Shown here piece by piece: positions 4,157 through 42,441 of a stretch of DNA of 64,000 nt (within the stretch, counting starts at the first letter, position 1; each line of letters starts with the position of its first letter). The notes beneath the pieces are model-generated. The model was not told the origin of the DNA and ran no database searches. It saw only the letters and a list, made by a program, of their open reading frames with translations. This DNA is from Calditrichia bacterium (lineage in GTDB: Bacteria > Calditrichota > Calditrichia > JAJRVZ01), in contig CAVXXB010000008.1 in assembly GCA_963765585.1 (NCBI GenBank), positions 405,111 through 469,110 on the forward strand, given 5' to 3'. The translations under genes were made by a program, and so were the position numbers.

Positions 4157-5090
4157 GGATAAATCCCGGGGCTATTGATCATATTTATGAATCTATGCAA
4201 ATGTCATCCCGAATTTATTTCGGGAATATTCTGCTGGCTATCGGCTGTCTGCTCTCGGCCAACAGCCAACGGCAAACGATTTAGGATAAATCCCGGGGCC
4301 ATTGATCATATTTATCAATCTATGCAAATGTCATCCCGATTTTATTTCGGGAATATTCTGCTGGCTATCGGCTGTCTGCTCTCGGCCAACAGCCAACGGC
4401 AAACTGATTTAGGATAAATCCCGGGGCCATTGATCATTTTTATCAATCTATGCAAATGTCATCCCGAATTTATTTCGGGATCTATGTATCGGCTATCGGC
4501 CACCGGCAAACGATTAGGATAAATCCCGGGCTATGATCATATTTATCAATCTATGCAAATGTCATCCCGGAATATTCTGCTGGCTATCGGCTGTCTGCTC
4601 TCGGCCAACAGCCAACGGCAAACTGATTTAGGATAAATCCCGGGGCCATTGATCATATTTATCAATCTATGCAAATTTCATCCCGATTTTATTTCGGGAA
4701 TATTCTGCTGGCTATCGGCTGTCTGCTCTCGGCCAACAGCCAACGGCAAACTGATTTAGGATAAATCCCGGGGCCAGTGATCATATTTATCAATCTATGC
4801 AAATTTCATCCCGATTTTATTTCGGGAATATTCTGCTGGCTATCGGCTGTCTGCTCTCGGCCAACAGCCAACGGCAAACTGATTAAGGATAAATCCCGGG
4901 GCCATTGATCATATTTATCAATCTATGCAAATTTCATCCCGATTTTATTTCGGGAATATTCTGCTGGCTATCGGCTGTCTGCTCTCGGCCAACAGCCAAC
5001 GGCAAACTGATTTAGGATAAATCCCGGGGCCATTGATCATATTTATCAATCTATGTATCGGCTATCCGCTGTCGGCCATCGGCCAACGGA
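4157..5090. repeat. Tandem array of a ~127-128-bp unit, 6 near-identical copies plus 2 truncated/degenerate copies
   Basis: Unit starts (ggataaatcccgggg) fall at 4157, 4285, 4412, 4517, 4631, 4759, 4887 and 5015. The copy at 4412 is truncated and the copy at 4517 has a 12-bp deletion. Each unit carries the hairpin tcatcccgattttatttcgggaat. The last degenerate copy runs into the stop codon of the transporter gene at 5091. Confidence 0.95.
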
Positions 5091-6413: not shown

Positions 6414-6567
6414 TTGTTTTCCTGACTGATACTTTTTTGACCAATAAGAAAAGTTAGAAGTTAGAGTTTATCATTGGCCACTCGCCTCTCGGCTCTCGCC
6501 CCAAGACATACAAAATGGAGCTGTATTCGAAACCAGTGCCGAGTACCAAGTTCCTAATTCCTAACTC

Positions 6568-7380
6568 CTAACTGCTATTAATAAGCCCATACCCCAGACT
6601 CTTCGAAATGCTGTCTGCGTGTTTTTTTACCTGTTTACCGATTTTTTCAAATTCTGATTCGGGTATTCTGATCGACGGCCCGGTAATCCATATGGCGGCA
6701 ATCGGCTTGCCGTGCCGGTTGAACACGGGCGCAGAGATGCAATGCATTCCTTCAATTTCTTCCGCATGATCAATAGAATAGCCATCTTTACGAACTTTCG
6801 TAAGCACCCTGCGATATTTTTCTAAACTTAAAATTGTACGTGAACTGTATTTTTTAAACACAATCTTTTTGAATATTTTTTCCTGTGCTTCCTTAGGTAA
6901 AAAGGCAATCATTGCTTTTCCTGGTGCAGCGGTATGTAACTGAAATTTGCGTCCCGGTTCCAGTACAAAGCGAAACGAATGAATCCCTGGTACTTCCTCG
7001 ATCACCATTCCTTCATGACCATGTAACACACCAAGAGGAACCGTTTCGCCAAACATGTCCCTCAGGCGGCGCATATGGTCCAATGCTTTTTCAACCAGCG
7101 ATTCTTCGGTTAGTGCATTATATCCCAACACAAGCAATTTTTGCGACAATTGGAAGGCCTTGGTATCCTCATCCCGGTTCAAATAGCCGCGATCGAATAG
7201 CGTTGCCGTGATTCTAAAAATACTATTACGCGGGATGTTAGACTGAGTTGAAATTTCGCTGGAATTGAGACCTTGAGAATTATTGGCGAGGAGCTCAATA
7301 ATTTCCAGGGCCCGTTCAAGATTGGGAACATGATATTTGGAAGGGGTACCTTTGATATTCATTACTGTCTTAATCCCCAA
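6568..7380 (-). CDS. IclR-family transcriptional regulator (KdgR-like)
   Basis: 270 aa. The N-terminal wHTH (LERALEIIELLANNSQGLNSSEISTQSNIPRNSIFRITATL) is followed by an IclR effector domain. KdgR of pectin/hexuronate regulons belongs to this family. Confidence 0.8.
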   Translation of the reverse strand: MGIKTVMNIKGTPSKYHVPNLERALEIIELLANNSQGLNSSEISTQSNIPRNSIFRITATLFDRGYLNRDEDTKAFQLSQKLLVLGYNALTEESLVEKALDHMRRLRDMFGETVPLGVLHGHEGMVIEEVPGIHSFRFVLEPGRKFQLHTAAPGKAMIAFLPKEAQEKIFKKIVFKKYSSRTILSLEKYRRVLTKVRKDGYSIDHAEEIEGMHCISAPVFNRHGKPIAAIWITGPSIRIPESEFEKIGKQVKKHADSISKSLGYGLINSS

Positions 7381-7480
7381 GCAATGGTTTAATATTTAGA
7401 CAGAATGTCTAAAAATAAAATAAATCAAACCATAAGTCAACAAAAATAACTATATTTGGACGAATATTTACCTGATAATT

Positions 7481-10232: not shown

Positions 10233-10332
10233 ATATTTTATAAATAACTGCGAAATATTATTTATATATAGACAGCCTGTCTAAATATATGACATGTTTC
10301 CTAATAGTGCAAGGATTATATATCGATGTTAT

Positions 10333-12192: not shown

Positions 12193-12228
12193 ATCATAAA
12201 AAGAAGAGGAACGGTCTCAGACCGTTCC
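12193..12228 (-). terminator. Intrinsic terminator for the FG-GAP gene: perfect hairpin ggaacggtctcagaccgttcc followed by a T-run on the minus strand
   Basis: A 10-bp perfect stem lies 7 bp downstream of the stop at 12235. The minus strand reads hairpin then tcttcttttt. Confidence 0.7.
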
Positions 12229-12234: not shown

Positions 12235-15072
12235 TTATTTAAAGCTAATTTTCACTTCGTTAAGTATAGGTGAATATGCGCCGTTATCGGTTGTAAAAAT
12301 GGCCTTGTATTGCAACCAGGTTGCATCAGACGGCAGATTGATAATTTTGCCCGGTTGGGTATAATACGTGTCCTTACCATCAGGCCCCATCCATTGGGCT
12401 TGATCCAACATTTCCACACTTTTTGCCGCACGTACCTGGAAATGTATTTTACTGCGATTTGGTGTTTCTGCCTGCCAGGCTATTTTTTCAGGAATTTTAC
12501 CTGCCAAATTATGAGCTGAAGATATATAACTGTATGCAAATTTTCTATTCTCAATATGTCCGATATCAATACCCACATCATAATGGACGCCCACACTGGG
12601 AATCTCATGGCGATTGTCTGCAGAAAAGCCCTTTTCGCTGCCCCAGTAAATAAGTGAATTAGTACTATGGTCACCAAATTTCCCAATCTCATCATAACTG
12701 CCATCATGACGATGACAAAAGAAAAACACATCCGTATATCCGTCCAGATTAAAATCACTTGCGATCGATCCCGTGGCACCATCCGTAGGTAATTTTATGC
12801 TATTTTCAAGCGAATATCCATCTTCACCTCCAAGCAGGATAGTTGAATGCCAGGATCTGCGGCCATTGCCTTTGTAAAAGGGGCATATTAAATCAAGCCA
12901 GTCATCTCCATTTACATCGGCGATGCACATTGTCTTGGCCATAACGCCGATTTTTGTGAGATGCTCCGGATCAAATGTGCCATCCGCATTCTGATAATAA
13001 ATCAACACATTTTTATCATGGGCAAAGACAATATCCAGGAGGCCATCTTTGTTCAAATCCGCCACTCCAGGCGTCCCGGCGCCATTGCTTTCAGAAATTC
13101 GGATTCGTTTATCTTCCTTGAATTCACGGGTACCGGTTCCATAATAGATGCTGGCATCACCCCATTTCCCCTGCTGACCAAATACGATATCCAGATGACC
13201 ATCCCGGTTGATATCGGCAATTGATGCAGCACGGGTCATCATTATTGGCAATGTTGTTCGATCTGTGATGGGCCAACCCTGCTCGCTGCCCCAATAAATA
13301 AACGAACCTGGAAGCGGATCCCCATTTTCTGATTTTTTTACAGGTGTGCCATTGGATATAAGCACATCCAGATAGCCATCACGATCCAGATCGGCCACTT
13401 CCACACCCAATCCGGAATATGACGGCAAACCACTCATTCGCCATGAATCAAAGTCATTATTCTGATTCCAATAGACAAACGCTTCATTGGCCAGCCGCGT
13501 AATTTCACCCCGGTTAAGTAATATGACATCCACCTGATTGTCATCGTCCAGATCGGCAAAAGCCTGTTCGTAGGATTCCCGACCCGGCAATTCGATCCGG
13601 TCATCGACATTATATTTTCCATTGGCATTTCCAAAATAGAGATAATTTGGATCATAGTCCCCGCGTGAATTTCCCATCATTGACGTAAAAACGATATCGA
13701 GATGTCCATCCCCATTCAGATCCGCAATCGCGTTACCCTGGGCTCCGTGCTCATAAAGAGGTGTGCGTTGGGTTTTAGTAAATCCATCGGGTGAATTCCA
13801 ATAGATAAATGATGGTACTTCATAAGAATAGTGTTCCTGGAAATTTGACACGACCAGGTCAACCCATCCATCGTTGTTCAGATCTGCCGCATTGGCGCCC
13901 CAGGCACCAATCGTCTGGATTGAAACACGATTTTCTTCCAGAAAGCCTTTTTCAGAACCATAATACAAATATGAATCAATTAAGCGATTCGCCAGCCTGG
14001 GATTCCCGGTAAGTGAATGCTGGTGATTGGTAAAGAACACATCCTGATGACCATCTTTATTAAAATCTGAGATTACGACATCTTTTGCCATATAGCTTGT
14101 AAATGATATAGACCTATCCGTCAAAAATCCGTCGGCACTATTTAAATATGCAAGTGATGTGGTTCCTTCCTGATTTGCAAAAACCACATCTTTTAAACCG
14201 TCACCATTAATATCATCGCAAGCGACTGCATGGGCCTTTTTTGTCGGTAATTTTGCCATTTCTTTTTCATCGAATCCGGATTCGGAGCCATAATAGATAT
14301 AAGATTCCGCCCCATCCCCATTGGCAAAAACCAGATCCGGCCAGTCATCGCCATTCAACTCATCGATCAAAACATCAGTGGCACCTACCGTCAGGACATT
14401 TGTAAATTTTTCCGGATCAAAGCCACTCTTTGCCCCCCAGTAAATCCTGCTGGGGGAAGAACCTTCACGATTTTTATCGCGATATTCCCAGAACCCGCCG
14501 GAGAATGCAAATACAATATCCTGAAAACCATCCTTGTTCAAATCGCCGATGGCTGCTTTTTGCGTATTGGATCCGGGAAGTTCAACACGCTCTGCAAAAG
14601 GATAAAAGCCCCATTTGTCAGGCGATGATTTAAAATCCGGATCTTTCAATCCACCGTAATATATAAAAGACGGCATCTCCGTCCAGGTGCCATTTGAATA
14701 ATTTGCTACAACTAAATCCTGATTACCATCCTGGTTCAGATCGCCAGGTGTCACCCACATGGGGCCGTTGGCCGGCACATAATTGTGATTCTTAATACTA
14801 AAATCTTTGCCGTTTCCCCAATAAATGGACAGATCAAGCATCTCGATCAGAGGATGCGAATTGGCACACAGGATATCGATATAGCCATCGTCATTGACGT
14901 CCCAGCGATTGATCATCTGTACCCGGCCGTTATGGGATACATACGTATTGGCGCCGGCATCATCAAACGTGCCGTCTGCAAAATCGGTAAATGTTTTTTC
15001 AATCCACACATCCTGGCTAAACAGTGATATACAACTGAATAGAAAGATTACCAATATCAAAAATGTTTTCAT
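12235..15072 (-). CDS. Secreted FG-GAP/VCBS repeat beta-propeller protein (945 aa)
   Basis: Signal peptide present. There are more than 10 repeats of D(L/I)NxDGxxD(I/L)V calcium-binding FG-GAP motifs. Confidence 0.7.
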   Translation of the reverse strand: MKTFLILVIFLFSCISLFSQDVWIEKTFTDFADGTFDDAGANTYVSHNGRVQMINRWDVNDDGYIDILCANSHPLIEMLDLSIYWGNGKDFSIKNHNYVPANGPMWVTPGDLNQDGNQDLVVANYSNGTWTEMPSFIYYGGLKDPDFKSSPDKWGFYPFAERVELPGSNTQKAAIGDLNKDGFQDIVFAFSGGFWEYRDKNREGSSPSRIYWGAKSGFDPEKFTNVLTVGATDVLIDELNGDDWPDLVFANGDGAESYIYYGSESGFDEKEMAKLPTKKAHAVACDDINGDGLKDVVFANQEGTTSLAYLNSADGFLTDRSISFTSYMAKDVVISDFNKDGHQDVFFTNHQHSLTGNPRLANRLIDSYLYYGSEKGFLEENRVSIQTIGAWGANAADLNNDGWVDLVVSNFQEHYSYEVPSFIYWNSPDGFTKTQRTPLYEHGAQGNAIADLNGDGHLDIVFTSMMGNSRGDYDPNYLYFGNANGKYNVDDRIELPGRESYEQAFADLDDDNQVDVILLNRGEITRLANEAFVYWNQNNDFDSWRMSGLPSYSGLGVEVADLDRDGYLDVLISNGTPVKKSENGDPLPGSFIYWGSEQGWPITDRTTLPIMMTRAASIADINRDGHLDIVFGQQGKWGDASIYYGTGTREFKEDKRIRISESNGAGTPGVADLNKDGLLDIVFAHDKNVLIYYQNADGTFDPEHLTKIGVMAKTMCIADVNGDDWLDLICPFYKGNGRRSWHSTILLGGEDGYSLENSIKLPTDGATGSIASDFNLDGYTDVFFFCHRHDGSYDEIGKFGDHSTNSLIYWGSEKGFSADNRHEIPSVGVHYDVGIDIGHIENRKFAYSYISSAHNLAGKIPEKIAWQAETPNRSKIHFQVRAAKSVEMLDQAQWMGPDGKDTYYTQPGKIINLPSDATWLQYKAIFTTDNGAYSPILNEVKISFK

Positions 15073-15335
15073 CTTATGTCCATTTTTTTCCTGATTGCCT
15101 TCATTTATAGAACGCTGAGTACGCTGAATACCGCGGAATATTTAAGAACAGAGTGTAAGCAATTTAAATTCTGAACCGGGTTCAGAATGACCTTATTGTC
15201 TTCCCGTATTTGGTTCGGGATCTAAATGGAGATATATTTTTTAAACTGTTATTTGGTAGTTATAAACGAACTCACAATAAATCTCTCATCTCTAATTTAT
15301 TAAAATCCGCCTTACTCTGAATAATCTGCGTTAAA

Positions 15336-16136
15336 TTACAGATCACGCTCATATAACAACATGAGAGTATTTGACATTTGGATACGTATTTCCCTGTATT
15401 TCTCATTATCTGCCTGACTCTCTGTAAGTTTGATTTCACGCGTCAGGTAGTTGATCAGTTCCTCTTTTGATCGTTGTGCATAATAACTATCAGGGAACCG
15501 ATCCATATAATCCTTAAATAGAATAAATCCCAGAGGCCATAATTGTTCAAAGTTACCCCATTTCTCAGATATTCTCTGATCTATAACCTGTAGAATACTT
15601 TTATTTGCTTCAAATGATCTGGTTTCAGAACTTTTATGTGCCATAAACTGATACTCAAAAAAAAGTTCATTCATAGCAATTAATTCTGATTCGGTGTTAC
15701 CAGTACCCAGTTCCGAGTAATAGTAACGCACAGAATCCAGCCAGGTCTGAATTTCAAATTTCGATAGTTTCTCCACATCCAGCTTATAATTTATGGGTAT
15801 GTTAAGCCAGAACTTCTCCACCTTGCCATTTACTGTGCCGGGTTCAAATTTTGCCGTCTTAATCATATCAAGTGCCGATTGATCCAATAATTGTGATCCG
15901 GATGATCGGTATATATCTGCCAGCGCTACATTACCCTGTTCATCAATCATTACTTTTAACTGTACTGATCCGGATATATTATATTCATAGGCCTCCCTGG
16001 GATACTCAAATGCGATATGTGTGGAAAGTAATTTTGGGTAAACTATCCCCGATTTGTTCTGTTTTTGTGGATGACATCCTAACAGAAAACAAAATAAAAA
16101 TAATAACAGATATTTTGACGCAATGTGTCTTATCAT
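15336..16136 (-). CDS. Lipoprotein with a TonB C-terminal-like domain
   Basis: 266 aa with a signal peptide and lipobox (LLGCHPQ). The segment YPREAYEYNISGSVQLKVMIDEQGNV...SSGSQLLDQSALDMIKTAKFEP matches the TonB_C fold signature. Confidence 0.55.
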   Translation of the reverse strand: MIRHIASKYLLLFLFCFLLGCHPQKQNKSGIVYPKLLSTHIAFEYPREAYEYNISGSVQLKVMIDEQGNVALADIYRSSGSQLLDQSALDMIKTAKFEPGTVNGKVEKFWLNIPINYKLDVEKLSKFEIQTWLDSVRYYYSELGTGNTESELIAMNELFFEYQFMAHKSSETRSFEANKSILQVIDQRISEKWGNFEQLWPLGFILFKDYMDRFPDSYYAQRSKEELINYLTREIKLTESQADNEKYREIRIQMSNTLMLLYERDL

Positions 16137-16164
16137 ATAAATCTGTTTTGAAACGACTAAATCG

Positions 16165-17424
16165 TCATTTCTGTGAAGTTGATAATTTTACTGAAACCGG
16201 ATTATCCAGCTTTAATATCTCTAATTCCAGATATTTACGGAACTGTTCTTCGGTTGTTATGCCGCCCGGCTCCTGTCCCCAGGCCGCCAGGAAATAATAC
16301 GTCATATTTTCCTGTTCTGGTTTCAGAATTACTATGTGACTCTGACCATCATCGGCTCTTTCAATTAAATTCGATTTTTTATATAAAACCGCCATACCGA
16401 GTAAATCCTGTTCATTGACAAGCGTTTGCGCGCCAAAGGTAGCCAGATATTGCCATTCACTATCTCCGGATGATTCTAATAAATCCGCCATTTCATGCTT
16501 TACCAACCCGGTACAGATGTTTTCAGCTCCACCTTTTATAGTGATATCGTGTCTGGTTTTACGGTCACCGGCCGCAATCGATAATTTTGATTGTAAATCA
16601 TATTTTTTGTCCGCCACCTGCCAGCCATAATAATCCGTCTGTATCCGTGAATATACCGGACCATTTGCTACAATCGCGCAGGTAATGCTATCTGTCACTG
16701 ATACCATTTTAACTTCGCTATCATTCCACATACCAATGGATCCGATTCCGAGTGTTGATCCTACCTTCAGTACATCCACTCCCCAATCGGCCATTTCATG
16801 GTATGAATCAAATCCGTCCTGTCCTACGTTTTGTAACACCATTTCGCTGGTCTTTTTGCCGAAGATATCTGTTGCATTGCGCCAGTCCAGATAGAATCGA
16901 TAACCAACCTTATCAGACTCCCAACCGGGACCCTCATAGCGAAAATAGGTATCATGATCTGTATGGACATCCGGAACCCGTACATAGGAAACATTTTCGA
17001 ATTTCCCGCCGATATATTTTTTATCTTCAAATTTTCCACCAACTTTATGGGATAATTCCGCCTGTGTTCTCTTTGTGTATGGTTTTTCAATCGCCACACC
17101 GGGTGTCGAAATTATTAATAATTCTCGTTCTTCATTTGGTTGAAGATCTGTTACCAGTACCAGCATATCATTCTGACCATCCTGATTCCGGTCATCCAAC
17201 TGACAAGGGACTGCATCTTCCCCATGATATACCATTAATGCCCTCTCATTAAATTCGCTGTTACCGGCTTTTAGATCGGCTACAGGTAGTTCAATTAACA
17301 CATCCTTTAGTGGTTGATCCAGATTATTTTTCACCTTCAAATCATATTTAATTGGTCCGCTGCAGGAACTCAATACAACAATAATAATTAGCGACAGAAA
17401 AATTTTCATTTTATAGACCTCCAA
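16165..17424 (-). CDS. Hypothetical lipoprotein (possibly DUF4861-type, associated with hexuronate/pectin loci)
   Basis: 419 aa with a signal peptide and LSSCSG lipobox. No catalytic motifs recognised. The family assignment rests on weak recollection only. Confidence 0.4.
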   Translation of the reverse strand: MEVYKMKIFLSLIIIVVLSSCSGPIKYDLKVKNNLDQPLKDVLIELPVADLKAGNSEFNERALMVYHGEDAVPCQLDDRNQDGQNDMLVLVTDLQPNEERELLIISTPGVAIEKPYTKRTQAELSHKVGGKFEDKKYIGGKFENVSYVRVPDVHTDHDTYFRYEGPGWESDKVGYRFYLDWRNATDIFGKKTSEMVLQNVGQDGFDSYHEMADWGVDVLKVGSTLGIGSIGMWNDSEVKMVSVTDSITCAIVANGPVYSRIQTDYYGWQVADKKYDLQSKLSIAAGDRKTRHDITIKGGAENICTGLVKHEMADLLESSGDSEWQYLATFGAQTLVNEQDLLGMAVLYKKSNLIERADDGQSHIVILKPEQENMTYYFLAAWGQEPGGITTEEQFRKYLELEILKLDNPVSVKLSTSQK

Positions 17425-17678
17425 TGGTTATAATAAATACTACCACAATAATTGTTTCTTGATACACGAATATATATCCGATTATTTTTTACTGCAATTT
17501 TTTTATATTCATTATATGTCCTGGCCTAATGTTTACAAATTTTTAACCGGCAAGTGCGCAGAGAATGACGGAAATAGGTACGGACGAAATCAATAATTAT
17601 TATTCGTTTGTTAACACATAGCCAAGACAATACAAATTATAATATTGCGAGATAAAGCAGATTGGATATAAAATTTCC

Positions 17679-17698
17679 GGAACGGTCTGAGACCGTTC
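17679..17698 (-). terminator. Second copy of the hairpin ggaacggtctgagaccgttc, downstream of the Ldh_2 gene
   Basis: Same stem sequence as at 12208..12228. It lies ~60 nt downstream of the stop at 17759. Confidence 0.5.
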
Positions 17699-17758
17699 AC
17701 TACCAATACATTTGAATATCTAACCTCTAACCAAATTTTCGATACCACAAAATAAAAA

Positions 17759-18760
17759 TTAAACCATTTCCAAAATCTCTTGCCAGTAGTCATAATCAAC
17801 CGGGATTCCATTTTTTAAATTTTCTTTTCTTCTGATCAATGTCTGTTCGCCGGGATAATATATATTTGCACCTTGATGTATTTTATCAGAAGACCGATTG
17901 TACTCTAAAATATTATCAATTATTGCATCCGAATCTATTACACCGGGCTTGGAAGCATCGATGGCGATAAATATCTGTGATAATCCATATTCGTGATCAC
18001 GTTTTCCGATTTGATGCACCGCATCCCCCTCTGACAAAATTGCTGCAATAATATCGAGCATCATAGATAAACCGGACCCTTTCCAAAAGCCGATGGGCAA
18101 AAGACGTTCCGTCTGCTCAATTTCGCCAGGATCACGGCTTAGATTTCCATTGTGATCATACCCGCCATCCATGGGTAAGGATTCATTATTCCGCCGGAAT
18201 GATTCCAGTTTGCCGTAAGAAAACAACGACAATGCCATATCCAAAACAATATGTCCTTCAGATCGTGGTACGGCCATCACAAATGGGTTATTTCCCAATT
18301 TAGCCTCAGTAGCACCCCAGGGCGGTAAATTTGGTTTCGTATTTGTCCAACAGATTCCGATGCAGTTAGCATCTGCTGCCTGCCAGCCGTAGGATCCACC
18401 GCGTAGCCAGTGATTGGTATTGCGCAAAGCAACACACCCTAAACCCTGTGTTTTTGCGATCTCAATTGCTCTTTGCATGCAGGCGTAGGCATTCAGATTC
18501 CCTGGACCAAGACTGCCGTCCCAGTTTTCAACAGTTCCATTTTTCTTCCGGCATTTTGCCAGTGCATCCGGTTTAATATATCCGCGTTGTATGCCGCGAA
18601 TATATGCAGGGAATCTGTTTATGCCATGGGAGGCAAATCCATCCAGATTGGTCTCTGTGAATAACCGGGCTGATAAATCTGCCCGCTTATCACTAAAATT
18701 ATACTTGATTAGAATCTGTTTTAGAGTTTGGTGAAGATCTTTGTATGGAATACGTTGCAT
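17759..18760 (-). CDS. yiaK: Ldh_2-family dehydrogenase, YiaK-like 3-dehydro-L-gulonate 2-dehydrogenase / 2,3-diketo-L-gulonate reductase
   Basis: Blocks NRFP, ALRNTNHWLRGGSYGWQAA, IGICWTN, PWGA..LGNNP, FSYGKLE and GFWKGSG match my recollection of E. coli YiaK. The ORF track starts at 18838, but the first 26 codons are read from the repeat element, so the true start is likely the M of MQRIPYKDL (~18760). Confidence 0.8.
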   Translation of the reverse strand: MQRIPYKDLHQTLKQILIKYNFSDKRADLSARLFTETNLDGFASHGINRFPAYIRGIQRGYIKPDALAKCRKKNGTVENWDGSLGPGNLNAYACMQRAIEIAKTQGLGCVALRNTNHWLRGGSYGWQAADANCIGICWTNTKPNLPPWGATEAKLGNNPFVMAVPRSEGHIVLDMALSLFSYGKLESFRRNNESLPMDGGYDHNGNLSRDPGEIEQTERLLPIGFWKGSGLSMMLDIIAAILSEGDAVHQIGKRDHEYGLSQIFIAIDASKPGVIDSDAIIDNILEYNRSSDKIHQGANIYYPGEQTLIRRKENLKNGIPVDYDYWQEILEMV

Positions 18761-18774
18761 ATTTTTCTCGCTTC

Positions 18775-19052
18775 TGGATACAAGATACAGGATACAGTAT
18801 TCAGGATACAAGATGCTGGATGCTACTTTCATTGTCATCTCGAAGAGATCTTTCCGGATTGCTGGTGCCCTTTTCGACGGGAAGATTCCTTCGGAATGAC
18901 ATAAGAATTACTTAGTACCCTGGATATAGTATCCTGCATATTGCTTCGGCTATAAGGTCCTTTCAGGAAGACAATTCGGTGCCACCTCTATACTGAAGCC
19001 TGGCGCCTGAAACCTGGGGCCTGTATCTTGCATCCAGCATCCAGTATCTGCT
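18775..19052. repeat. MITE-like dispersed element, copy A
   Basis: The low-complexity arm caagatacaggatacag... at 18781 pairs with the inverted arm ...ctgtatcttgcatccagcatccagtatctg at 19021..19050. The core tgtcatctcgaagagatctttccggattgctggtgc...gaagattccttcggaatgacataagaatta is near-identical to 21796..21880. Confidence 0.8.
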
Positions 19053-19056
19053 CTTC

Positions 19057-20478
19057 TCACAGTTTATAATTCTTCTTTGCCAGATTGTATGATAAATCAA
19101 CGATGATTTCTTTTGCTTCATCCATATCCAACACCCCGTCCAGTACCAGTTCGGCCAGATATCGTGAATCAATGCGCCGTGCAAGGTCATGGCGGGCCGG
19201 GATTGATGGAAAAGCACGTGTATCATCAATAAAACCCACCGTATTATAAAAACCTGCGGTTTCGGTTACATGGCGCCTGAAGCGTAACATTCCCTCGCGA
19301 CTGTCATGGAACCACCACGATGGCCCCAATCTCAATGCCGGATAATGTCCGGCCAGGGGTGCCAGTTCGCGGGAATAAGTGGACTCATCAAGGGTGAACA
19401 AAATTAATGTCAGATTTTTGTCATTACCAAATTTATCTAACAGCGGTTTTAGATTATGTACATAATCTGTGGTTACCGGAATATCACATCCTTTGTCCGC
19501 ACCAAATTTCTTAAAAATGTCCGGATTATAATTTCGGTATGATCCCGGATGGATTTGCATGGTCATGCCGTCTTCCGTGGCCATTCGGGCCATTTCCATC
19601 AACATATGTCCGGTAAAGATGGTCGCATCCTCATCCGTTGCTTTTCCCGCCAGTCCTTTTTGAAATAATTTTTCTGCTTCGTCTGCGCTAATTTTTATGG
19701 TAAAGGGTGAATTCACGCCGTGATCGGTTGAAGTACAACCCATGGACTTGAAAAATGCACGCTGGTTTTCCAAGGCGGTGATAAACTGAGTGTAGTCCTT
19801 ACAATCCATATCGGATAAGAGGCTCAACCGGTCAATTTGGGTCTTCCAGTCCGGAAATAACATATTTGTCACATTATCCGGCCGGAATGCCGGAACAATC
19901 TTACCATCCCAGTCGCTTTCCTTAATTGTTTTATGATGAACCAGCGTATCGGTGGGTGAATCTGTCGTACTCAATACCTCGATATTAAAACGATCAAACA
20001 TAGCGCGTGGATAGTTTTCCGGTTTTTGTAATGCAACTTCTATCTGATCATAAATATCCATCGCTGTGTCAGAATTCAATTGCTGTTTTATATCAAATAC
20101 ATCATGTAGTTCATGTTTGAGCCACATTCCGGTGGGTGTACCCCGGAAAAGATAAAAATTATCAGCAAAAATTTGCCAAATCTTTTTATGATCGGCTTCT
20201 GTTTTTCCGCCATCAGCCCTGGGAACACCAAGCGCCTCCAGATCAATTCCCTGGGAATAGAGCATCCGGAACACATAATGATCCGGAATAATTAATAATT
20301 CTGCCGGATCGGGAAATGGTGTATTTTCAGCAAATATTTTTGGATCCACATGTCCGTGGGGACAGATCAATGGTAGATCCTTAACTATTTCATATAATTC
20401 ACGGGCTATTTTGCGTTCTTCGGTGTTGGCACCAAGGTAACGATCTCCATTGAGTTTCAACTGTTTTTCTCCGGACAT
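19057..20478 (-). CDS. uxaC: Glucuronate isomerase (uronate isomerase)
   Basis: 473 aa. Full-length similarity to UxaC: ICPHGHVDP at the N-terminal metal site, and the C-terminal LGPSWWFHDSREGMLRFRRHV...GFIDDTRAFPSIPARHDLARR matching E. coli FGSGWWFNDQKDGMERQ...[20 protein letters not shown]. Confidence 0.9.
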   Translation of the reverse strand: MSGEKQLKLNGDRYLGANTEERKIARELYEIVKDLPLICPHGHVDPKIFAENTPFPDPAELLIIPDHYVFRMLYSQGIDLEALGVPRADGGKTEADHKKIWQIFADNFYLFRGTPTGMWLKHELHDVFDIKQQLNSDTAMDIYDQIEVALQKPENYPRAMFDRFNIEVLSTTDSPTDTLVHHKTIKESDWDGKIVPAFRPDNVTNMLFPDWKTQIDRLSLLSDMDCKDYTQFITALENQRAFFKSMGCTSTDHGVNSPFTIKISADEAEKLFQKGLAGKATDEDATIFTGHMLMEMARMATEDGMTMQIHPGSYRNYNPDIFKKFGADKGCDIPVTTDYVHNLKPLLDKFGNDKNLTLILFTLDESTYSRELAPLAGHYPALRLGPSWWFHDSREGMLRFRRHVTETAGFYNTVGFIDDTRAFPSIPARHDLARRIDSRYLAELVLDGVLDMDEAKEIIVDLSYNLAKKNYKL

Positions 20479-20492
20479 ACAAACTCCTTTTT

Positions 20493-20923
20493 ATAGAACA
20501 CGGATTACACTGATTACTCGAAGTATCAATAAGCGTTCCCGAGAATATCTCGGGAACGAGATATCTATGATTACGGATTAAATGTAGTAATTTAATGATC
20601 TCACATGAGTAATTCATGCAATTTACCACAAAGACTCAAAGACACGAAGAAAAAGAATTAAAAATTTATAATTGAAATACAATCACCGTGTTTTATAATT
20701 ATAACTCTTTCTGCTAATCCATTATTTTTTATAACTTTGTATCTTTGTTACTTTGTGACTTTGTGTTTATGAATAATTCAGGCTAATTATTTTAATAAAA
20801 TATATTGAATATAAGTATAGTATGTATAAATATTTTTAATTTCGATCTAAAATGCATAAATCTATAAAAATTATTTTTTAAATTCCGCGTTAATCCGTGT
20901 GATCCGCGTAATCCGTGTTCTAT
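20493..20923. mobile_element. 431-bp intergenic element bounded by 16-bp perfect terminal inverted repeats (atagaacacggattac / gtaatccgtgttctat)
   Basis: The TIRs at 20493..20508 and 20908..20923 sit right next to the uxaC start and the methyltransferase start. The interior has a perfect palindrome gttcccgagaatatctcgggaac (20535..20557), direct 9-10-bp words CACGGATTA/CACTGATTA, and a very AT-rich centre. Confidence 0.5.
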
Positions 20924-20944
20924 CAAATAATTAACGGGAGCAAT

Positions 20945-21694
20945 ATGAATAACGATTTTATCTTTGAGTTTTTTGAAAAAATGCCCAGACAAGGCCCTGG
21001 ATCAGAAAAATATACGTTACAAGCATTGGAGAAAATCAAGCATAGATTGCCGGTTACCCCTAATATACTGGATATCGGGTGTGGCAATGGTACACAAACA
21101 TTTGATCTGTTACAGGCGCTTCCTTCGGCCAATATAACCGCAATTGATATTCACCCACCATTTCTTGACATGGTCAAAGAGAAATGTTGTAAGATACTAC
21201 AGCCCCCGGCAAAAGTTCATGCACAGGCAATGTCCATGGCAGAAATCGACTTTGATCCGGGCACATTTGATCTCATCTGGTCGGAGGGCGCGATATACAA
21301 TGTCGGTTTTGAAAGAGGAATACAACTTTGGCAGGATTTACTAAAACCCGATGGATATATGGTGGTATCCGAAGCCGTCTGGCTAAAACCGGATTTGCCT
21401 GCGCCGGTGAGAGATTTTTGGGAATCAGAATATCCCGAGATCGGCACTATCGCGGATAAATTTTCAATCATTGAAAAATCCGGCTTAGAAACAGTTCATC
21501 ATTTTACGCTTCCCAAATCAGTGTGGCAGGATGAGTTTTATGTTCCCATGCAGGAATTAATCAATCATTTTCGTAAATCGCAAAAGAGTAACGTGATGAA
21601 TGAATTCCTTGACGGCATGCAGATTGAGATAGATATGTTCAAATCTTACGGAGAGTATTATTCGTATGAATTTTTTGTGATGGGGAAAAGATAG
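20945..21694 (+). CDS. Class I SAM-dependent methyltransferase
   Basis: The glycine-rich SAM motif I (LDIGCGNGTQT) and an acidic motif II (AIDIHPP) are present. The ORF track starts at 20915, but that ATG lies inside the right TIR, so the ATG at 20945 (MNNDFIFEFF) is more likely. Confidence 0.75.
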   Translation: MNNDFIFEFFEKMPRQGPGSEKYTLQALEKIKHRLPVTPNILDIGCGNGTQTFDLLQALPSANITAIDIHPPFLDMVKEKCCKILQPPAKVHAQAMSMAEIDFDPGTFDLIWSEGAIYNVGFERGIQLWQDLLKPDGYMVVSEAVWLKPDLPAPVRDFWESEYPEIGTIADKFSIIEKSGLETVHHFTLPKSVWQDEFYVPMQELINHFRKSQKSNVMNEFLDGMQIEIDMFKSYGEYYSYEFFVMGKR

Positions 21695-21919
21695 ATGCTT
21701 GATACTGGATGCAGGATACAGGATTCAGGATGCTGGATACTGGATGCTTGATGATGTGAATTCGATAAAATCGCACTCTATGTCATTCTGCATTCTGCCT
21801 GCCCCTGTCATCTCGCAGAGATCCTCCCGGATTGCTGGTGCACAATGCGACGAGAAGATTCCTTCGGAATGACACAAGAATTAATCAGTAACTTATTCTC
21901 GTATCCAGTATCCAGAATC
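21695..21919. repeat. MITE-like dispersed element, copy B
   Basis: Arms gatgcttgatactggatgcaggatacagg... and ...gtatccagtatccagaatc flank the core tgtcatctcgcagagatcctcccggattgctggtgc...gaagattccttcggaatgacacaagaatta, which matches copy A at 18828..18910. Confidence 0.8.
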
Positions 21920-21961
21920 ATATTGGGAACTTATTTTACGAGGAATTGTACAAACCGGCTT

Positions 21962-22003
21962 AAAAAAGAAAAACCCATCCGGGGCATGAACCGGACGGGT
22001 TTT
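21962..22003 (-). terminator. Intrinsic terminator of the TPR gene
   Basis: Hairpin aaacccatccggggcatgaaccggacgggttt at 21971..22003. On the minus strand it is followed by tttttctttttt. Confidence 0.65.
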
Positions 22004-22130
22004 CCAGACGTTAGGCTACACAAGGTGTGTAGACTTTGGAAGGCAAACTAATTTAACAATAAATTCAGTAAAAGTATTCCCTTTTCTGAATTTTTTTTAT
22101 TTTTTTTGTATTTGGGAAAATAATTAGAAC

Positions 22131-23429
22131 TTAATTATTTTCTCTATATGGCTTTTGACTTTTATATAAGTCAATTCGCGGCTCTATTTCTTGTGCCATT
22201 TGTTTGTCCCGGTTTTTTATCGCCAGTGAATGTGCTCTCTCTGCCAGTTGTCTCGCTTTGTCATATTCCTTATTCTCGGCAAAGCCCATCGCCAGAAGAT
22301 CCAGACATGTTGCCGTTTCCTGCTCATTATCCTCACAAATTAAAACAGCCAGTCGTAATGCTTCTTTTCCATTGCGAATTTTCGATTCAGGTGCGCTGGC
22401 ATATATTCTCGCGAGTTGATATGCAAATCGACGATCATTAGGTGCAATTTCCATACCCTTTTTAAAATAATTTATGGCGTCCGCTCTCTGACCCTGTCGT
22501 TTTGAAAAGGTTCCGATATTCAGATACGCATCCGTGGATTTGCTATCTATTTCCAGACTTTTCATTATTGTCATTTTTGCCTTTTCTATATCACCCAGTT
22601 CAAAATAGATGACTGCCAGATTGTTAATCGCGGCGAAATGTACCGGATTAATATCCAGAGCTTCCTTGTAATGATCCATGGCGGCTTCATAGCGTTTTTG
22701 TCGCTGATACACATAACCTAAACTGGTATGAGATGCTTCATTGGGTTTTGCTTCCAACGCTTTTTTGAACTCTTCTTCGGCCTTATTCAGATTGCCCTGA
22801 TTCAAAAAGTTATTTCCCCTAACCTGACACCAGAACGAACTCACCGCTTCGTTGACCATTTCGTAGTAGACCGGGTCTTTTAAGTCAAGTCGTTCGGGAA
22901 GCTTTACCATTTTATTAAATACAAGTTCGGCCTTTTCCTTTTCACCTTTTCTACGGTAAATATCTGCGAGTAGCGCTTGTGCCTCTCTGTAACCGGGCGC
23001 CATCTGCACGGCTTTACTTATTTGAGATTCCGCAGCATCTAAATCACTCTGTTCCATAGCCACTTTTGCCAAACCCAGATACGCATGTGGCACCCTGGAA
23101 TTCGAATATAGAACTCCCTGATAGCAAGCTTTGGCTTCCTTTAAACGACCAGATAAAAGATAGCGATTACCCAGTTTTATATTTAAGGGTGGATAAGAAG
23201 AATCCAGTTGTTTTGCTTTTTCATACCAGATAAGCGCATCATCTGAATTGAGCTCATCCAGTGCAATCGCACAAAAATAAGGCCAGCGGAAATGTTCGGG
23301 GTCAAGAGAATTTGCTTTTTCAAAACACGGCACAGAAGGTTCTATATAATCATGAATTAACAATGTCATGCCCAATTTACCCCAGTTTTCACTTTTATCC
23401 GGTTCAGATTCGGCCTGCGACACCAGCAT
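22131..23429 (-). CDS. Tetratricopeptide (TPR) repeat protein
   Basis: 432 aa with at least 8 TPR-like 34-aa repeats (AxxxYxxAxxxDP pattern). Confidence 0.8.
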   Translation of the reverse strand: MLVSQAESEPDKSENWGKLGMTLLIHDYIEPSVPCFEKANSLDPEHFRWPYFCAIALDELNSDDALIWYEKAKQLDSSYPPLNIKLGNRYLLSGRLKEAKACYQGVLYSNSRVPHAYLGLAKVAMEQSDLDAAESQISKAVQMAPGYREAQALLADIYRRKGEKEKAELVFNKMVKLPERLDLKDPVYYEMVNEAVSSFWCQVRGNNFLNQGNLNKAEEEFKKALEAKPNEASHTSLGYVYQRQKRYEAAMDHYKEALDINPVHFAAINNLAVIYFELGDIEKAKMTIMKSLEIDSKSTDAYLNIGTFSKRQGQRADAINYFKKGMEIAPNDRRFAYQLARIYASAPESKIRNGKEALRLAVLICEDNEQETATCLDLLAMGFAENKEYDKARQLAERAHSLAIKNRDKQMAQEIEPRIDLYKSQKPYRENN

Positions 23430-23925
23430 ATTGACTTTGCTAACGATTTGCTTCTCTGTGCCTGCAAAAGCAATTGCTCTGATATTTTCAAGAATTTCTT
23501 TATTCGTACTATAATCGATGTACCAAATAATTGAAAAATAAGATGAACGTACATACGATTAATAAAAGAATAACATAGAGATAATTTTTAGTTTTCATTC
23601 CATCACCTGATATTTGAGAGTAGTATAAAATAGAGACAGGTCATCTCGCAGAAACCCTCCCGTGATGCAGGCACTGCGTTAGAACAAGAAAATGTTACCC
23701 GAACGACGGAAAGATCCCTGAAGGGATGACAAATTAATATCAATGTCCAATGCCCAAGTCCGAATGTCAAATGAATGCCCAAAATAAAATGCCAAATTAT
23801 AAAAGTAATTCACAATCATTGGACATTGAAAATTGATTTGGCATTTGGATTTTGACATTTGGCATTCTTATTTAAAACTTTGTGATCTTCGTGGTGAATT
23901 ATAGTACTCATAATAATTTCACCAC

Positions 23926-25623
23926 TCAATCGGCTACATCTTGTCCTTGCCCTTTTTTAAGGGTAATTATCTGATTGGGTGAAATATTCTTAAATATTTC
24001 AGTATCTCCACCTGGCCAAATGACGCGTACTTCATCGATGCTGTCGATGTTGCCAAGTCCAAAATGCGCCCGCGGATCATTTGAGGCGCAAAAACTATAG
24101 CCGGGATTTACCAGACGCAGGAAACTTTTTTCTCCCGAATGGACTATGACTTTTGCACCATACATATCCCTTTTCAAGTTGGGATCGATGGCCCTGACTA
24201 TTAACCAGTTACCATTTTTCTCATGATCATTGCGATACAGGCGGGCTCTTCCGCCTTCATTTGATACCAGCAAATCAACATCCCCATCGTTGTCAATATC
24301 GCCAAATACCAGCGCCCGGCTATTTTCAACCCGTGACGTAAATGGCAATGCCTGGTCACTCACATCGGTGAAACGGTCATTGCCATCGTTATTAAAAATC
24401 AGATTTGGTTCGGCATAATGATCCCAGTATTGAAGAGGATCTCTGTCCGTATAAATTTTTCCTCGAATAACTCTTCCGTTCACAATGGCAAGATCCAGAT
24501 CGCCATCGAGATCATAATCAAAGAATCCGGTACCAAAGCCGGTAAACGGCAGGCTGACTGCCGACAATGCGACTGGATTGGTCTCATCCTGAAATCCGAT
24601 ATCACCGGCATTGCGTAAAAAAGTGTTTGTTTCCCCCTGAAAATGTGTCATAAATAAATCAAGATCAAGATCGTTATCCACATCACCCAGTGTTACGCCC
24701 ATACTCGCTTCGGCCATTCCCATGCCATTTATTGCCATTCCCTGCATAAGTGCGTCATCACGAAACGTCCCATCCTTTTGATTGATCCACAGATGATTGT
24801 ATTTCCGGTCATTCGAGATATAGATATCGGGATAAAAATCATCATTAAAATCGGCACTTATAATTCCCAGGCCGGCGGATGGTTTGGCAGCAATGCCCGA
24901 TTCGACAGAGACATCTTTAAAGGTACCGTCACCATTATTTTTAAATAACCGGTCCGCGTATCCCGGGAATCCCTGTGGACCACAATAATCCGGGGCTCCT
25001 AAACGATCGACGCATACTACTGCTGTATCGTAATCCACATAATTTGCCACACAAATATCCAGGAATGAGTCTAAATTATAGTCGACGAAGGTAACGGAAA
25101 TCCCCCAATCGGGATTATGAATACCTGATGCCTGTGTTATATCACTAAAAGTACCATTTCCATTATTCAAATAAAGTGCATCCGGACCATCATTGGAAAT
25201 GTAAACATCCAGATCGCCATCATTATCAATATCCCCAATGGCCACTCCCATGCCATATCCTTGATCCCCCAGGCCGGAAATGCTGGTAACATCCGTGAAT
25301 GTACCATTGTCTTCCTGCCGGTAGAGCCTGTTTCTTATCGGTTCGTTATTGGTTTGTGTCTTTTCATGAATTGCGCCGTTGAGTAAATAAATATCCAGAT
25401 CATCATCGTTATCATAATCAAAAAACGCCGCACCGGATCCGATACTTTCCGGCATGTAATATTTACCATCAATTGCCGGGTCATGCACAAAATCAAGATT
25501 TACCTGGTCGGTAATTTCAGTTAGAAAGGAATTACTCTTTTGCCCCGTATCATTGCTGCACCCACAAAAAAACAAAAGCACATATGCAGGTATAACAAAC
25601 ATTGTAATCCTAAAATTTACCAT
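23926..25623 (-). CDS. FG-GAP repeat + ASPIC/UnbV C-terminal domain lipoprotein (CRTAC1-like)
   Basis: 565 aa. Lipobox FFCGCSN, D(x)DxDGDLD FG-GAP repeats, and the C-terminal ASPIC motif ...GYSFCASNDPRAHFGLGNIDSIDEVRVIWPGG. Confidence 0.8.
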   Translation of the reverse strand: MVNFRITMFVIPAYVLLFFCGCSNDTGQKSNSFLTEITDQVNLDFVHDPAIDGKYYMPESIGSGAAFFDYDNDDDLDIYLLNGAIHEKTQTNNEPIRNRLYRQEDNGTFTDVTSISGLGDQGYGMGVAIGDIDNDGDLDVYISNDGPDALYLNNGNGTFSDITQASGIHNPDWGISVTFVDYNLDSFLDICVANYVDYDTAVVCVDRLGAPDYCGPQGFPGYADRLFKNNGDGTFKDVSVESGIAAKPSAGLGIISADFNDDFYPDIYISNDRKYNHLWINQKDGTFRDDALMQGMAINGMGMAEASMGVTLGDVDNDLDLDLFMTHFQGETNTFLRNAGDIGFQDETNPVALSAVSLPFTGFGTGFFDYDLDGDLDLAIVNGRVIRGKIYTDRDPLQYWDHYAEPNLIFNNDGNDRFTDVSDQALPFTSRVENSRALVFGDIDNDGDVDLLVSNEGGRARLYRNDHEKNGNWLIVRAIDPNLKRDMYGAKVIVHSGEKSFLRLVNPGYSFCASNDPRAHFGLGNIDSIDEVRVIWPGGDTEIFKNISPNQIITLKKGQGQDVAD

Positions 25624-26096
25624 TAACGTCCTGTTCTAATAGTATTATGGCGTTAATCCGGCCTGCCGCGTTTCACACGGGTCATCCCCGTTCTATTTCT
25701 TTGATGTTGATATCCTATGATACTATTTATTATTATGCAATATTACTGGTAGACGAATATTATATTTCACCCCTAAAGGGGTTTTCAATGTTTTTGGGAA
25801 CTCCATTTACTACAAATATAGAACCGCTACGCGGTTCTTTGTATATCCTCGATATCATAGTCCCGTCAGGGATTATATATTTCTATCCATTTTTGATAGA
25901 GCATAGTAAAAATCCCTTAGAGTTAATATATTATAAGTAATTTGTAATTGGTAATTTTAATGAACCAATAGCCAACTCCAGGTTCTGAATAACCAATAAC
26001 CAATTCCAAGTTACAAGTTACGAGTTACAAATTCCTAATCCCTCATCTCTAATCTATTTCACCTGTGCATTTACATGAGAGACAATTTCCCCCTTA

Positions 26097-29627: not shown

Positions 29628-30011
29628 TACCGCATGAGATAAGAAATATTAGTAAGATGAAAAAATATGCCAGCCGAATAGCAGAATTATTATTAGAAAT
29701 ACATTTATAAAGATGGTTTATCATATACTCGTTTTCCCACCAACAAAATCAGTGATAATTTCTTTATACAAAAAGTCTGATAATTTACCAAAAAATAATA
29801 GAATAGTTTGAACCCTGAATTTAATCAGGGTCTCTCGCATAGACCCAAAGACCCGAGACAAGATGATTAGGTAAGTTAGAATGAGAAGTTAGAAATTGTA
29901 ATGGTAATTATTGCACATCGCCAATTACAAATTCTTAATTCCAAATCGTTTCATCTGCGCCTCTGCGACTCTGCGTGAAATAATTGTAAACAAATATGGA
30001 TGTTTACGCCC

Positions 30012-31652: not shown

Positions 31653-31959
31653 ATTTAAACTCCTGAGATCTAATTTGAATTGAGCCCCACTACCCTATTA
31701 TTAACTCACGCAGAGGCGCAGAGACGCTGAGAAAAAGAATATTGAATAGAAATTAGAGATTTGCGATTGGCAATATTTACAAATTACCAGTTCCTAATTC
31801 CGAGTTCCAAATTCTCCATTTTTGAGCAGGAGATTCTTCGTCCGCCAGACGGCGGACTCAGAATGACACCTAATATAATAACGAATTACCAATAGCAAAT
31901 TACTATCCTCATTTCTAACTTCTAACTATTTTTACTGCCTCTCTGCGAGTGAACATTGC

Positions 31960-35542: not shown

Positions 35543-35585
35543 TCTTGTTATCCTAAGTTTAGTAATACGTCAAAATAATAATTTA

Positions 35586-35733
35586 GACAGGATAACAGGA
35601 TTATTGAAGATGGTTAACTACTTGTGTATTATGCTGGTGACCCTATATGGACTCAAACTAAGTTTAGGAACCCAATTGTGTTCCCAAGTTCAACCTGGGA
35701 ACAAGGATTTCCTGTAAATCCTGTTATCCTGTC
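35586..35733. repeat. Structured intergenic element: 17-bp perfect inverted repeat gacaggataacaggatt / aatcctgttatcctgtc enclosing ~114 bp with internal palindromes
   Basis: Read directly. The inner palindromes are gttcccaagttcaacctgggaac and ggaacccaattgtgttcc. It lies in the 236-bp gap between two minus-strand genes. Confidence 0.6.
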
Positions 35734-38479: not shown

Positions 38480-38686
38480 AAATATTCTCGGTTAATTCAC
38501 ATTCAGAGAGAAAGGAAATTGGGAATTAGGACTTGGGAACTTGTGATTGTGCTTTGTTATTGATTATATTAAAAACAAATAAATATCACCCAGCACCAAT
38601 GCCAAATAACTAATTACAAGTTACTAATTCCCAGTTCCAAGTTTCAAATCTCTAATCTCTCATTCCTCATTTCTAATCTCTAACTT

Positions 38687-39808: not shown

Positions 39809-39821
39809 AGTATAGTTCCAA

Positions 39822-42255: not shown

Positions 42256-42441
42256 AATGCAAATCTGATCTATTCAGATATTTCTAAAGCAAAGTCGCAG
42301 AAAAAGATAGTTAGAAGTTTGGAACTGGGAATTGGGAATTAGTAATTTGTTATTGGTTATTAGTACATCTTTTTACTTCTAACTTCTAATTCCAATTCCT
42401 AATTTTCGTCTCTGCATCTTTGCGAGAGATAACCTATCCAT

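Follow-up and report, generated by a model that had tools for sequence, protein, structure and literature searches.

The CGTC-tagged superfamily of repetitive extragenic palindromic (REP) sequences, described by Di Nocera, De Gregorio & Rocco (2013, BMC Genomics 14:522; PMC3733652), comprises four families in five phyla and includes dRS3 of Neisseria (CGTC-1) as well as RPE-6 and RPE-4 of Rickettsia (CGTC-1 and CGTC-4, respectively). These elements carry a tetranucleotide tag, often TGTC and also CCTC, followed by a stem of 8 to 9 bp whose first two positions are almost invariably AT, a loop of 4 to 5 nt, and a 3-nt tail with the consensus CCA. They occur in tens to thousands of copies per genome, predominantly as HH dimers (tags outside) with spacers of 20 to 100 nt, and tandem clusters are rare. 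They are located downstream of open reading frames (ORFs) in unidirectional or convergent spacers, with intragenic copies that include the in-frame RPE-4 and RPE-6 of Rickettsia. Unlike the GTAG REPs, they never flank RAYT/IS200-like genes and have no associated transposase (PMC3733652). We describe here tagged hairpins in a 64,000-nt stretch of a Calditrichia bacterium (the window; contig CAVXXB010000008.1, positions 405,111 to 469,110), in which about 20 such units are spread across about 9 kb of intergenic DNA. The evidence supports an established type of element, here in a lineage outside those reported, and we consider it likely that the sites are a REP family of this already described CGTC/TGTC-tagged superfamily that spreads as non-autonomous DNA. 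The window has a G+C content of about 42%, nearly all of its long ORFs are on the minus strand, and it contains no tRNAs.

Tagged hairpins in the intergenic DNA

The first-pass annotation of the window had proposed a dispersed module consisting of a hairpin followed by ATGAC, and its frequency relative to shuffled intergenic DNA had been set beforehand as the refuting test. We counted perfect hairpins (stem of at least 5 bp and loop of 3 to 9 nt) with ATGAC directly 3', on both strands of 9.2 kb of intergenic DNA, and compared the counts with dinucleotide shuffles of the intergenic DNA of the window (300 for this count). Ten instances were observed, compared to 0.52 ± 0.72 (maximum of 3) in the shuffles. 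Without the tandem array the numbers were 7 and 0.56, and with stems of at least 7 bp they were 4 and 0.06. ATGAC was the top pentamer after hairpins once pentamers of A and T alone were set aside. With a refined descriptor (GTC, then an AT-initiated stem of at least 5 bp and a loop of at most 30 nt, in 8.2 kb of intergenic DNA), 11 of 20 intergenic GTCAT sequences opened a hairpin, compared to 0.98 ± 1.0 (maximum of 5) in shuffles and 9 of 126 (7%) in coding DNA. The frequency was clearly above that of shuffled DNA by both measures, and every site that had been listed is present within 2 nt or less of its assigned position. Chance co-occurrence of hairpins and the pentamer ATGAC would account for weak instances such as the site at 17557, which has no hairpin, and the AT-only 5-bp stems found in coding DNA. 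However, the observed counts were reached in 0 of 300 shuffles, which refutes this explanation, and flanks on either side of the hairpins are common to the units, and identical units are present in other organisms. We therefore give chance practically no credence.

When read from the other strand, a unit consists of an unpaired tag, (T/C)GTC, a stem opened by AT, a variable body or loop, the closing AT, and a pyrimidine tail (CTY or CCC). Since the units read in this direction show a 5' tag and then AT, ATGAC is the reverse complement of the tag and the first two stem bases. The earlier description of variable stems holds, but the conserved 3' ATGAC is not a tail; it corresponds on the opposite strand to the 5' tag GTC and the stem-opening AT. 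Architecture and covariation were scored in 16 window units, all picked as hairpins, with the tags TGTC (10 units), CGTC (3), GGTC (2), and TTTC (1). Stem position 1 was A-T in 12 of the 16 units and position 2 was T-A in 15, and the tail was CTY or CCC in 13. The outer five stem pairs were paired in 93.8% of cells. Stem positions 3 to 5 covary, with two-sided changes in four of the five outer pairs and one-sided changes in none. The conservation of tag and tail around variable stems is free of the bias introduced by selecting hairpins. The asymmetry of G-U versus A-C was tried as a strand test, and there were too few non-Watson-Crick pairs for any signal.

Three types of body were found. The first has stems of 8 to 9 bp and loops of 3 to 5 nt, as in TGTC ATCCCGAA tttat TTCGGGAT CTA and CGTC ATTCTGAA cttgt TTCAGAAT CCC. 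The second has stems of 5 to 6 bp and loops of 2 to 3 nt, as in TGTC ATTCC gaa GGAAT CTTCCC. The third, found at 31833-31868 and 58816-58859, has a 5-bp outer stem within which lie GA/GAA internal loops and another hairpin. The units are arranged as four HH dimers, one TT dimer (tags inside), one tandem cluster, and three singletons, with several remnants, and they are positioned 33 to 214 nt 3' of the stop codon of the preceding gene. The elements of the window are as follows.

4157-5055, plus strand: tandem cluster of about seven 127/128-nt repeats, each with one REP unit, a heptamer block, and two other small hairpins (detected by TRF; repeat family D14)
4202-4229, 4329-4356, and 4457-4484, plus strand: REP units of the array with the tag TGTC
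4457-4484, plus strand: best-preserved array unit, with an 8-bp stem and 5-nt loop, the first example of body type 1 given above
4560-4577, plus strand: truncated REP unit of the array
4676-4703, 4804-4831, and 4932-4959, plus strand: REP units of the array with the tag decayed to TTTC
15168-15192, minus strand: REP unit at the originally flagged site, with a 9-bp stem, GGTC ATTCTGAAC ccg GTTCAGAAT (z of -3.6); left half of the TT dimer 15168-15224
15197-15224, plus strand: partner in the TT dimer, 86% identical to the array unit (D14), TGTC tTCCCG tatttggtt CGGGAt CTA
17557-17571, minus strand: tag and half stem (CCGTCATTCTCTGCG) with no hairpin, probably a remnant
18833-18901, unstranded: element A, a 69-nt HH dimer (D17), TGTC ATCTC gaa GAGAT CTTTCC ... 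GGGAAG ATTCC ttc GGAAT GACA
21782-21798, plus strand: remnant, an extra tag and half stem (GTCATTCTGCATTCTGC) in a 42-nt insert left of element B
21806-21874, unstranded: element B, an HH dimer with 87% identity to A, located behind a canonical terminator in a spacer between convergent genes (3'-3')
23639-23731, unstranded: element C, an HH dimer that has a longer spacer than its homologues A and B (D18)
29812-29834, plus strand: remnant, a tagless REP-like body with a stem resembling that of unit 37000-37024, ACCCTGA atttaa TCAGGGT CTC
31833-31868, minus strand: singleton with an outer 5-bp stem ATTCT/AGAAT (31833-31867) and an inner hairpin, TGTC ATTCT GA (GTCCGCC gtct GGCGGAC) GA AGAAT CTCC; 92 nt 3' of the stop codon of the upstream gene
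36963-37024, unstranded: HH dimer of two units with 8-bp stems and 5-nt loops, CGTC ATTCTGAA cttgt TTCAGAAT ... ACCCTGAA ataaa TTCAGGGT GACG (z of about -4.6)
43382-43421, minus strand: singleton with a 20-nt loop holding a nested TCCTGAA/TTCAGGA hairpin, CGTC ATCCTGAA (loop) TTCAGGAT; 33 nt 3' of the stop codon of the upstream gene
58816-58859, minus strand: singleton of the cross-phylum type (see below) with an outer stem ATTGC/GCAAT (58816-58858), TGTC ATTGC GAGAA (GTCCCGAT tta ATCGGGAC) GCTGAA GCAAT CTCC
60857-60893, minus strand: remnant, a decayed copy of the cross-phylum type, tTtATTGCGAAGCG..GACGAAGaAATCTC

Several individual sites differ from the first-pass annotation. At the second listed site, the tag sequence is present at 17557-17571, but there is no stem-loop and only the tag and half a stem remain (CCGTCATTCT, minus strand). 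The module had been ascribed to every unit of the tandem array; TGTCAT is intact in three of the seven units, but three others have TTTCAT and one is truncated. The hairpins at 31840 and 58826 exist, but they are inner hairpins, and the AT on the ATGAC side belongs to the outer 5-bp stem. The units at 21807-21822, 23640-23655, and 15197-15224 had not been listed.

Element A folds into a single long hairpin closed by TGTCAT/ATGACA and is bracketed by inverted GGATRCW heptamer arrays (18767-18805 and 19006-19044). The similarity between A and B extends over about 230 nt and takes in the flanking heptamer arrays. In element C, the left unit is decayed (GGTC ATCTC gca GAAAC), and the right unit reads TGTC ATCCCT tc AGGGAT CTTTCC.

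Occurrence in relatives and in other phyla

The elements are gained or lost in a lineage-specific manner. In the relative L002, whose UxaC is 87% identical, the 3' region of the TPR gene and the terminator are nearly identical to those of the window, but L002 lacks element B together with its heptamer flanks. A different unit, TGTCATTGCGAGCGAG...GGCAATCC, is found in its UxaC-Ldh_2 spacer. In relatives L123 to L127 and L140 to L143, the spacers are tiny and tagged units are absent. Downstream of the TPR gene, about 110 nt (21968-22075, minus strand) are almost identical to L002 5125-5215 and better conserved than the surrounding spacer. The hairpin CTACACA-agg-TGTGTAG (22016-22032) and the terminator 22005-21968 are part of this stretch, which may be a conserved element of the 3' untranslated region (UTR) or a small RNA.

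One insertion is tolerated in frame inside a gene, as with the Rickettsia RPEs, and is predicted to extend the protein. Near its 5' end, the coding sequence of the second Peripla_BP_6 gene (ORF 35779-37092) contains about 144 extra nt (48 codons). Most of this insert is a 134-nt long hairpin (36928-37061; -27 kcal/mol, z of -6.2) with the CGTC dimer 36963-37024 at its tip. In five relatives, this second gene begins 8 nt before the stop codon of the first (ATGAATAA or ATGAATAG), and its products open with MNNFSRILII or MNSLLFS. The window retains the overlapping ATG at 37092, which is followed by the extra nucleotides, absent from the five relatives, and then by ...FQKSLLIIPLI. The insert is stop-free only in the frame of the gene, with 3 to 7 stops in the other five frames, and was stop-free in 1.6% of shuffles. 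The empty orthologous sites and the insertion, which keeps the reading frame and follows a conserved overlapping start codon, provide clean insertion evidence for this class of element. The syntenic block 35779-48561 is about 2 kb longer than L140 534-11204, mainly through expanded spacers. The window has three ORFs (42442-43260, 40552-42255, and 39822-40616) where the relatives have one cytochrome/beta-propeller gene of 797 to 817 amino acids.

Closely related units are present in other organisms. The singleton 58816-58859 fits the search pattern GTCATTGCGAG..GCAATCYCC, and a scan of genome_contigs with the cross-phylum pattern GTCATTGCGAG-N5-35-GCAATCYCC gave at least 120 loci. The hosts among the matches listed were Chloroflexota, Bacteroidota, Gamma- and Deltaproteobacteria, Oscillospiraceae, and Patescibacteria, as well as Ignavibacteria, Planctomycetota, Neisseriaceae, Atribacteria, and one archaeal metagenome-assembled genome (MAG). 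Among these same matches, the inner hairpins covary, the pairs comprised 59 HH, 27 HT, and 9 TT, and the spacers were divergent in 9 cases (depleted), convergent in 26, and co-directional in 49. The exact 21-mer TGTCATTCCGAAGGAATCTTC, found at the right ends of A and B, occurred at 10 metagenome loci with 31 to 47% G+C, mostly in HH dimers of 70 to 120 nt adjoining housekeeping genes, and the spacers of these dimers were unrelated and 27 to 75 nt long. The exact pattern of elements A, B, and C had no match in genome_contigs or metagenome_contigs.

Four of the loci (L005, L043, L015, and L064, a Chloroflexus MAG) contain dense arrays of GTCATTGCGAG-type units that give rise to long spurious ORFs with peptides that include SCHCEPPQAAKQSPP and PPRNDIGG. 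L015 has a small GIY-YIG gene with units on both sides, and the ORF of this gene extends into one of the units (VIARSEATWQS...). A general pairing of GTCATTGCGAG-type repeats with small GIY-YIG nuclease genes was rejected, as it held at one (L015) of about 120 loci among the matches listed.

Identity and possible mode of spread

The window units resemble the CGTC REPs in most respects. They have the CGTC/TGTC tag, the stem-opening AT, and a short unpaired tail, are mostly HH dimers with spacers of about 20 to 100 nt, lie downstream of ORFs, include an in-frame intragenic copy, and have no adjacent transposase. The array units and units 36964 and 37000 also have the 8-bp stem and 5-nt loop, and unit 15168 agrees in part, with a 9-bp stem but a 3-nt loop. 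In contrast, the ends of A, B, and C have stems of 5 to 6 bp and loops of 2 to 3 nt (many of them 3-nt GNA loops), the composite units 31833, 43382, and 58816 are outside the published stem and loop ranges, and the tail is CTY or CCC/CCT (13 of 16 units) rather than CCA. The large tandem cluster, the nesting of dimers in longer inverted structures, and the host phylum, KSB1, which is outside the five phyla reported, also differ. Homologues of the glucuronate isomerase encoded in the window carry the name candidate division KSB1. Since the tag, the AT, the dimers, the location, and the intragenic copy agree while the tail, the stem variants, and the tandem cluster deviate, we filed the units as a new set of families within the known superfamily, which is thereby extended to candidate division KSB1.

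The REP-like character that the first-pass annotation had proposed is borne out by the unpaired tetranucleotide tag, the covarying stems, the conserved tail, the intergenic sites downstream of genes, and the inverted dimers. As also stated there, no RAYT-type transposase is encoded in the window (Pfam, 40 long ORFs). The suggested link to a RAYT was not supported. CGTC REPs are reported never to flank RAYT/IS200-like genes (PMC3733652), and no Y1 transposase was found in the window or in 1.06 Mb comprising the window and fetched loci, most of which carry related elements. The window lacks genes for a transposase, an integrase, or a Y1 HUH protein, and its 40 long ORFs gave no Y1_Tnp (PF01797) by Pfam. 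E. coli RayT and IS608 TnpA, used as phmmer queries, had no match at an E value of ≤10 in the 1.06 Mb. The genes bracketed by two units were unrelated host genes, with the exception of the one GIY-YIG gene, and an all-against-all BLASTP of ORFs near units showed no recurrent family. The mobilizing enzyme of this tag class is probably not a RAYT; a RAYT gene may nevertheless lie in the source genome outside the window.

Compared to the GTAG REP/BIME/REPIN-RAYT systems of E. coli and Pseudomonas, the window units share the combination of tag and hairpin, the intergenic location away from promoters, and a presumed spread through single-stranded hairpins. Like REPINs, they form inverted pairs able to fold into a long hairpin (TGTCAT/ATGACA in A, CGTC/GACG in 36963-37024, and the 134-nt hairpin). 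However, their tag is (T/C)GTC/GTC(A) and not GTAG/GTGG, and no RAYT was present in the window or the 1.06 Mb. The insertion at 36928-37061 is similar to the Rickettsia RPEs in that it adds about 48 codons in frame without stops, and RPE-4 and RPE-6 share the CGTC tag (PMC3733652). In contrast to the RPEs, it is a single case in the window and lies in an N-terminal signal-peptide region.

The first-pass annotation had offered a conserved RNA processing or termination signal as the alternative to a REP-like family. An intrinsic terminator was rejected, as no unit is directly followed by a T/U run. A scan of 14500-24500 called four terminator-like sites, none of them a tagged unit; canonical terminators are separate, such as 22005-21968, and element B lies downstream of one. 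In a broader form of this idea, the units would be cis-acting RNA signals (hairpins for 3'-end processing, stabilization, or termination) that selection shaped in place and that are not dispersed repeats. The position of the units 33 to 214 nt behind stop codons, the sense orientation of all three singletons, and the excess of sense over antisense cross-phylum singletons (12 versus 5 among the matches listed) are consistent with such a function, and REPs elsewhere in bacteria are thought to act as RNA hairpins (PMC3733652). However, the 12:5 bias is not significant, the inverted pairing of most units places the motif on both strands, the array units lie in antisense orientation relative to their neighboring genes, and element B follows a canonical terminator between convergent genes. 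Rfam gave no matches at the gathering thresholds and none at an E value of ≤1. The orthologous spacers of relatives lack the elements, and one copy is within a coding region. We consider RNA signals evolved in place unlikely. A, B, and C were also considered as a structured RNA gene, which was ruled out by their inverted-repeat ends, the unrelated spacers in dimers elsewhere, and the unrelated genomic contexts. A literature search by sequence strings returned only primers.

Alternatively, the 134-nt hairpin and elements A, B, and C might be miniature inverted-repeat transposable elements (MITEs), derived by deletion from an insertion sequence (IS) with terminal inverted repeats and mobilized by the DDE transposase of that IS. 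A, B, and C each terminate in imperfect inverted repeats of about 25 nt whose first bases are TGTCAT, and the sizes of 69 to 134 nt are in or near the MITE range. Like the bacterial MITEs (Correia/NEMIS, ERIC, and RUP), the elements are small, non-coding, and dispersed, and they show presence and absence between relatives. In contrast to MITEs, A, B, and C are not flanked by a target-site duplication (direct duplication), and neither the window nor the surroundings of related elements contain a parent IS or transposase. The ends are covarying hairpins in their own right, units are also found singly, with tags inside, and in tandem, and dimers elsewhere have unrelated spacers of 27 to 75 nt. 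A MITE origin is therefore quite unlikely.

It is very unlikely that the tag and palindrome are the site of a host DNA-binding protein (nucleoid-associated, gyrase- or IHF-like, or a regulator), conserved for that role and not spreading. The conservation of tag and tail beside variable stems would suit such a site, as would the head and tail sequences kept across phyla, which could reflect a conserved host factor, and gyrase, Pol I, and IHF bind the REPs/BIMEs of E. coli. However, stem sequences that vary between copies fit poorly with a single sequence-specific operator, copy numbers differ sharply between close relatives, and in-frame copies within genes and tandem copies are what selfish spread typically produces. 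A binding role would also be compatible with mobility.

We therefore favor a REP family that spreads as non-autonomous DNA, by analogy with GTAG REP/REPIN-RAYT and IS200/IS605 systems. By this analogy, a trans-acting enzyme would recognize the folded hairpin and tag on single-stranded DNA, and copies would be duplicated locally, sometimes in tandem, and then decay. Inverted pairs with tags outside form REPIN-like dimers of 62 to 93 nt that can fold as two small hairpins or one long hairpin. As units sit 33 to 214 nt behind stop codons, they are probably cotranscribed into 3' UTRs and operon spacers, where RNA hairpins could slow 3'-exonucleases. The hairpin-plus-tag architecture, the dispersal, the dimer, tandem, and decayed forms, the lineage-specific presence, and the one in-frame insertion were observed. 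Several points weigh against this interpretation. In the short and composite units, stems and loops depart from the ranges of the four published families. The tail is not CCA, and the covariation test is partly circular, the units having been chosen as hairpins. The copy count is confined to this window. Mobility is deduced from presence/absence and dispersal rather than from an observed mechanism, with no mobilizing enzyme among the loci searched. Some copies may also stem from segmental duplication of larger modules and not from dimer transposition, because the stretch of about 230 nt common to A and B takes in more than the dimer.

For the same reason, and because the shared stretch carries inverted heptamer arrays and the intragenic copy has long outer arms, the unit that propagates may exceed the dimer in size, or duplication or template switching may give rise to copies. 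There is an outside chance that TGTC/CGTC-AT-tagged palindromes form one cross-phylum superfamily (Chloroflexota, Bacteroidota, Proteobacteria, Firmicutes, Patescibacteria, KSB1, and others) spread by a non-RAYT agent. In this KSB1 genome, the propagating unit might be not the REP dimer but a longer palindromic module, in which the dimer tops a 130- to 250-nt hairpin with arms made of inverted heptamer arrays or of other inverted flanks. Hairpin-primed or template-switch replication, and not cut-and-paste transposition, could generate such a module. Such replication of a long module would explain both the missing transposase and the unusual heptamer-rich spacers of this genome. Closely similar units that are common to many phyla without a linked transposase sharpen the question posed since 2013 of what moves or selects this class.

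Heptamer repeats and other features of the window

Nearly all long intergenic spacers of the window carry tandem repeats of 7 to 8 nt (GGATACA, GATGCTG, CGCAGAG, AATTAGG, TTGGCAT, and others). The heptamer-repeat spacers are the following.

6451-6577
18767-18814 and 19006-19048
21694-21753 and 21901-21919
23773-23873
25937-26055
29885-29975
31708-31732 and 31929-31947
38507-38683
42299-42404

The repeats often form imperfect inverted arrays around the center of the spacer, and they bracket the REP dimers A and B. Heptamer-repeat spacers were also present in L002 and L128 but not in more distant relatives with short spacers. The arrays resemble the STRR heptamer repeats of cyanobacteria.

Tagged units also affect gene annotation. 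The start of ORF 17759-18838, at 18838, is the ATG inside a REP tag (ATGACA), and comparison with L002 places the Ldh_2 start at 18760 (MQRIPYK). An ATG within the tag thus gives false start codons (18838 instead of 18760), and REP arrays give spurious ORFs.

The hairpin GAACGGTCT(C/G)AGACCGTTC is found directly after two unrelated stop codons (12209-12227 and 17680-17698), with a T-rich run 3' of the first copy, and appears to be a terminator-type hairpin common to both sites and different from the tagged units. The palindrome TAGACA-N3-TGTCTA occurs at 7397-7411 and 10269-10283, with a half-site at 35583-35591. Its spacers are upstream of an IclR-family regulator gene and of a transketolase gene, and it looks like a putative operator for the IclR regulator.

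Seven paralogous FG-GAP/ASPIC-UnbV (CRTAC1-like) genes are located at 12235-15072, 23926-35542, and 43454-45169. These paralogues yield many coding repeats of 30 to 60 nt (D-x-D-x-D-G calcium-loop motifs), which dominate the direct-repeat output. A sugar transporter is divided between two ORFs that cover positions 3 to 335 and 370 to 450 of the Sugar_tr profile, and a GH3 glycosidase begins at profile position 149 (51135-52488 and 52856-54145). The split transporter and the shortened GH3 gene likely reflect frameshifts, pseudogenes, or assembly errors.

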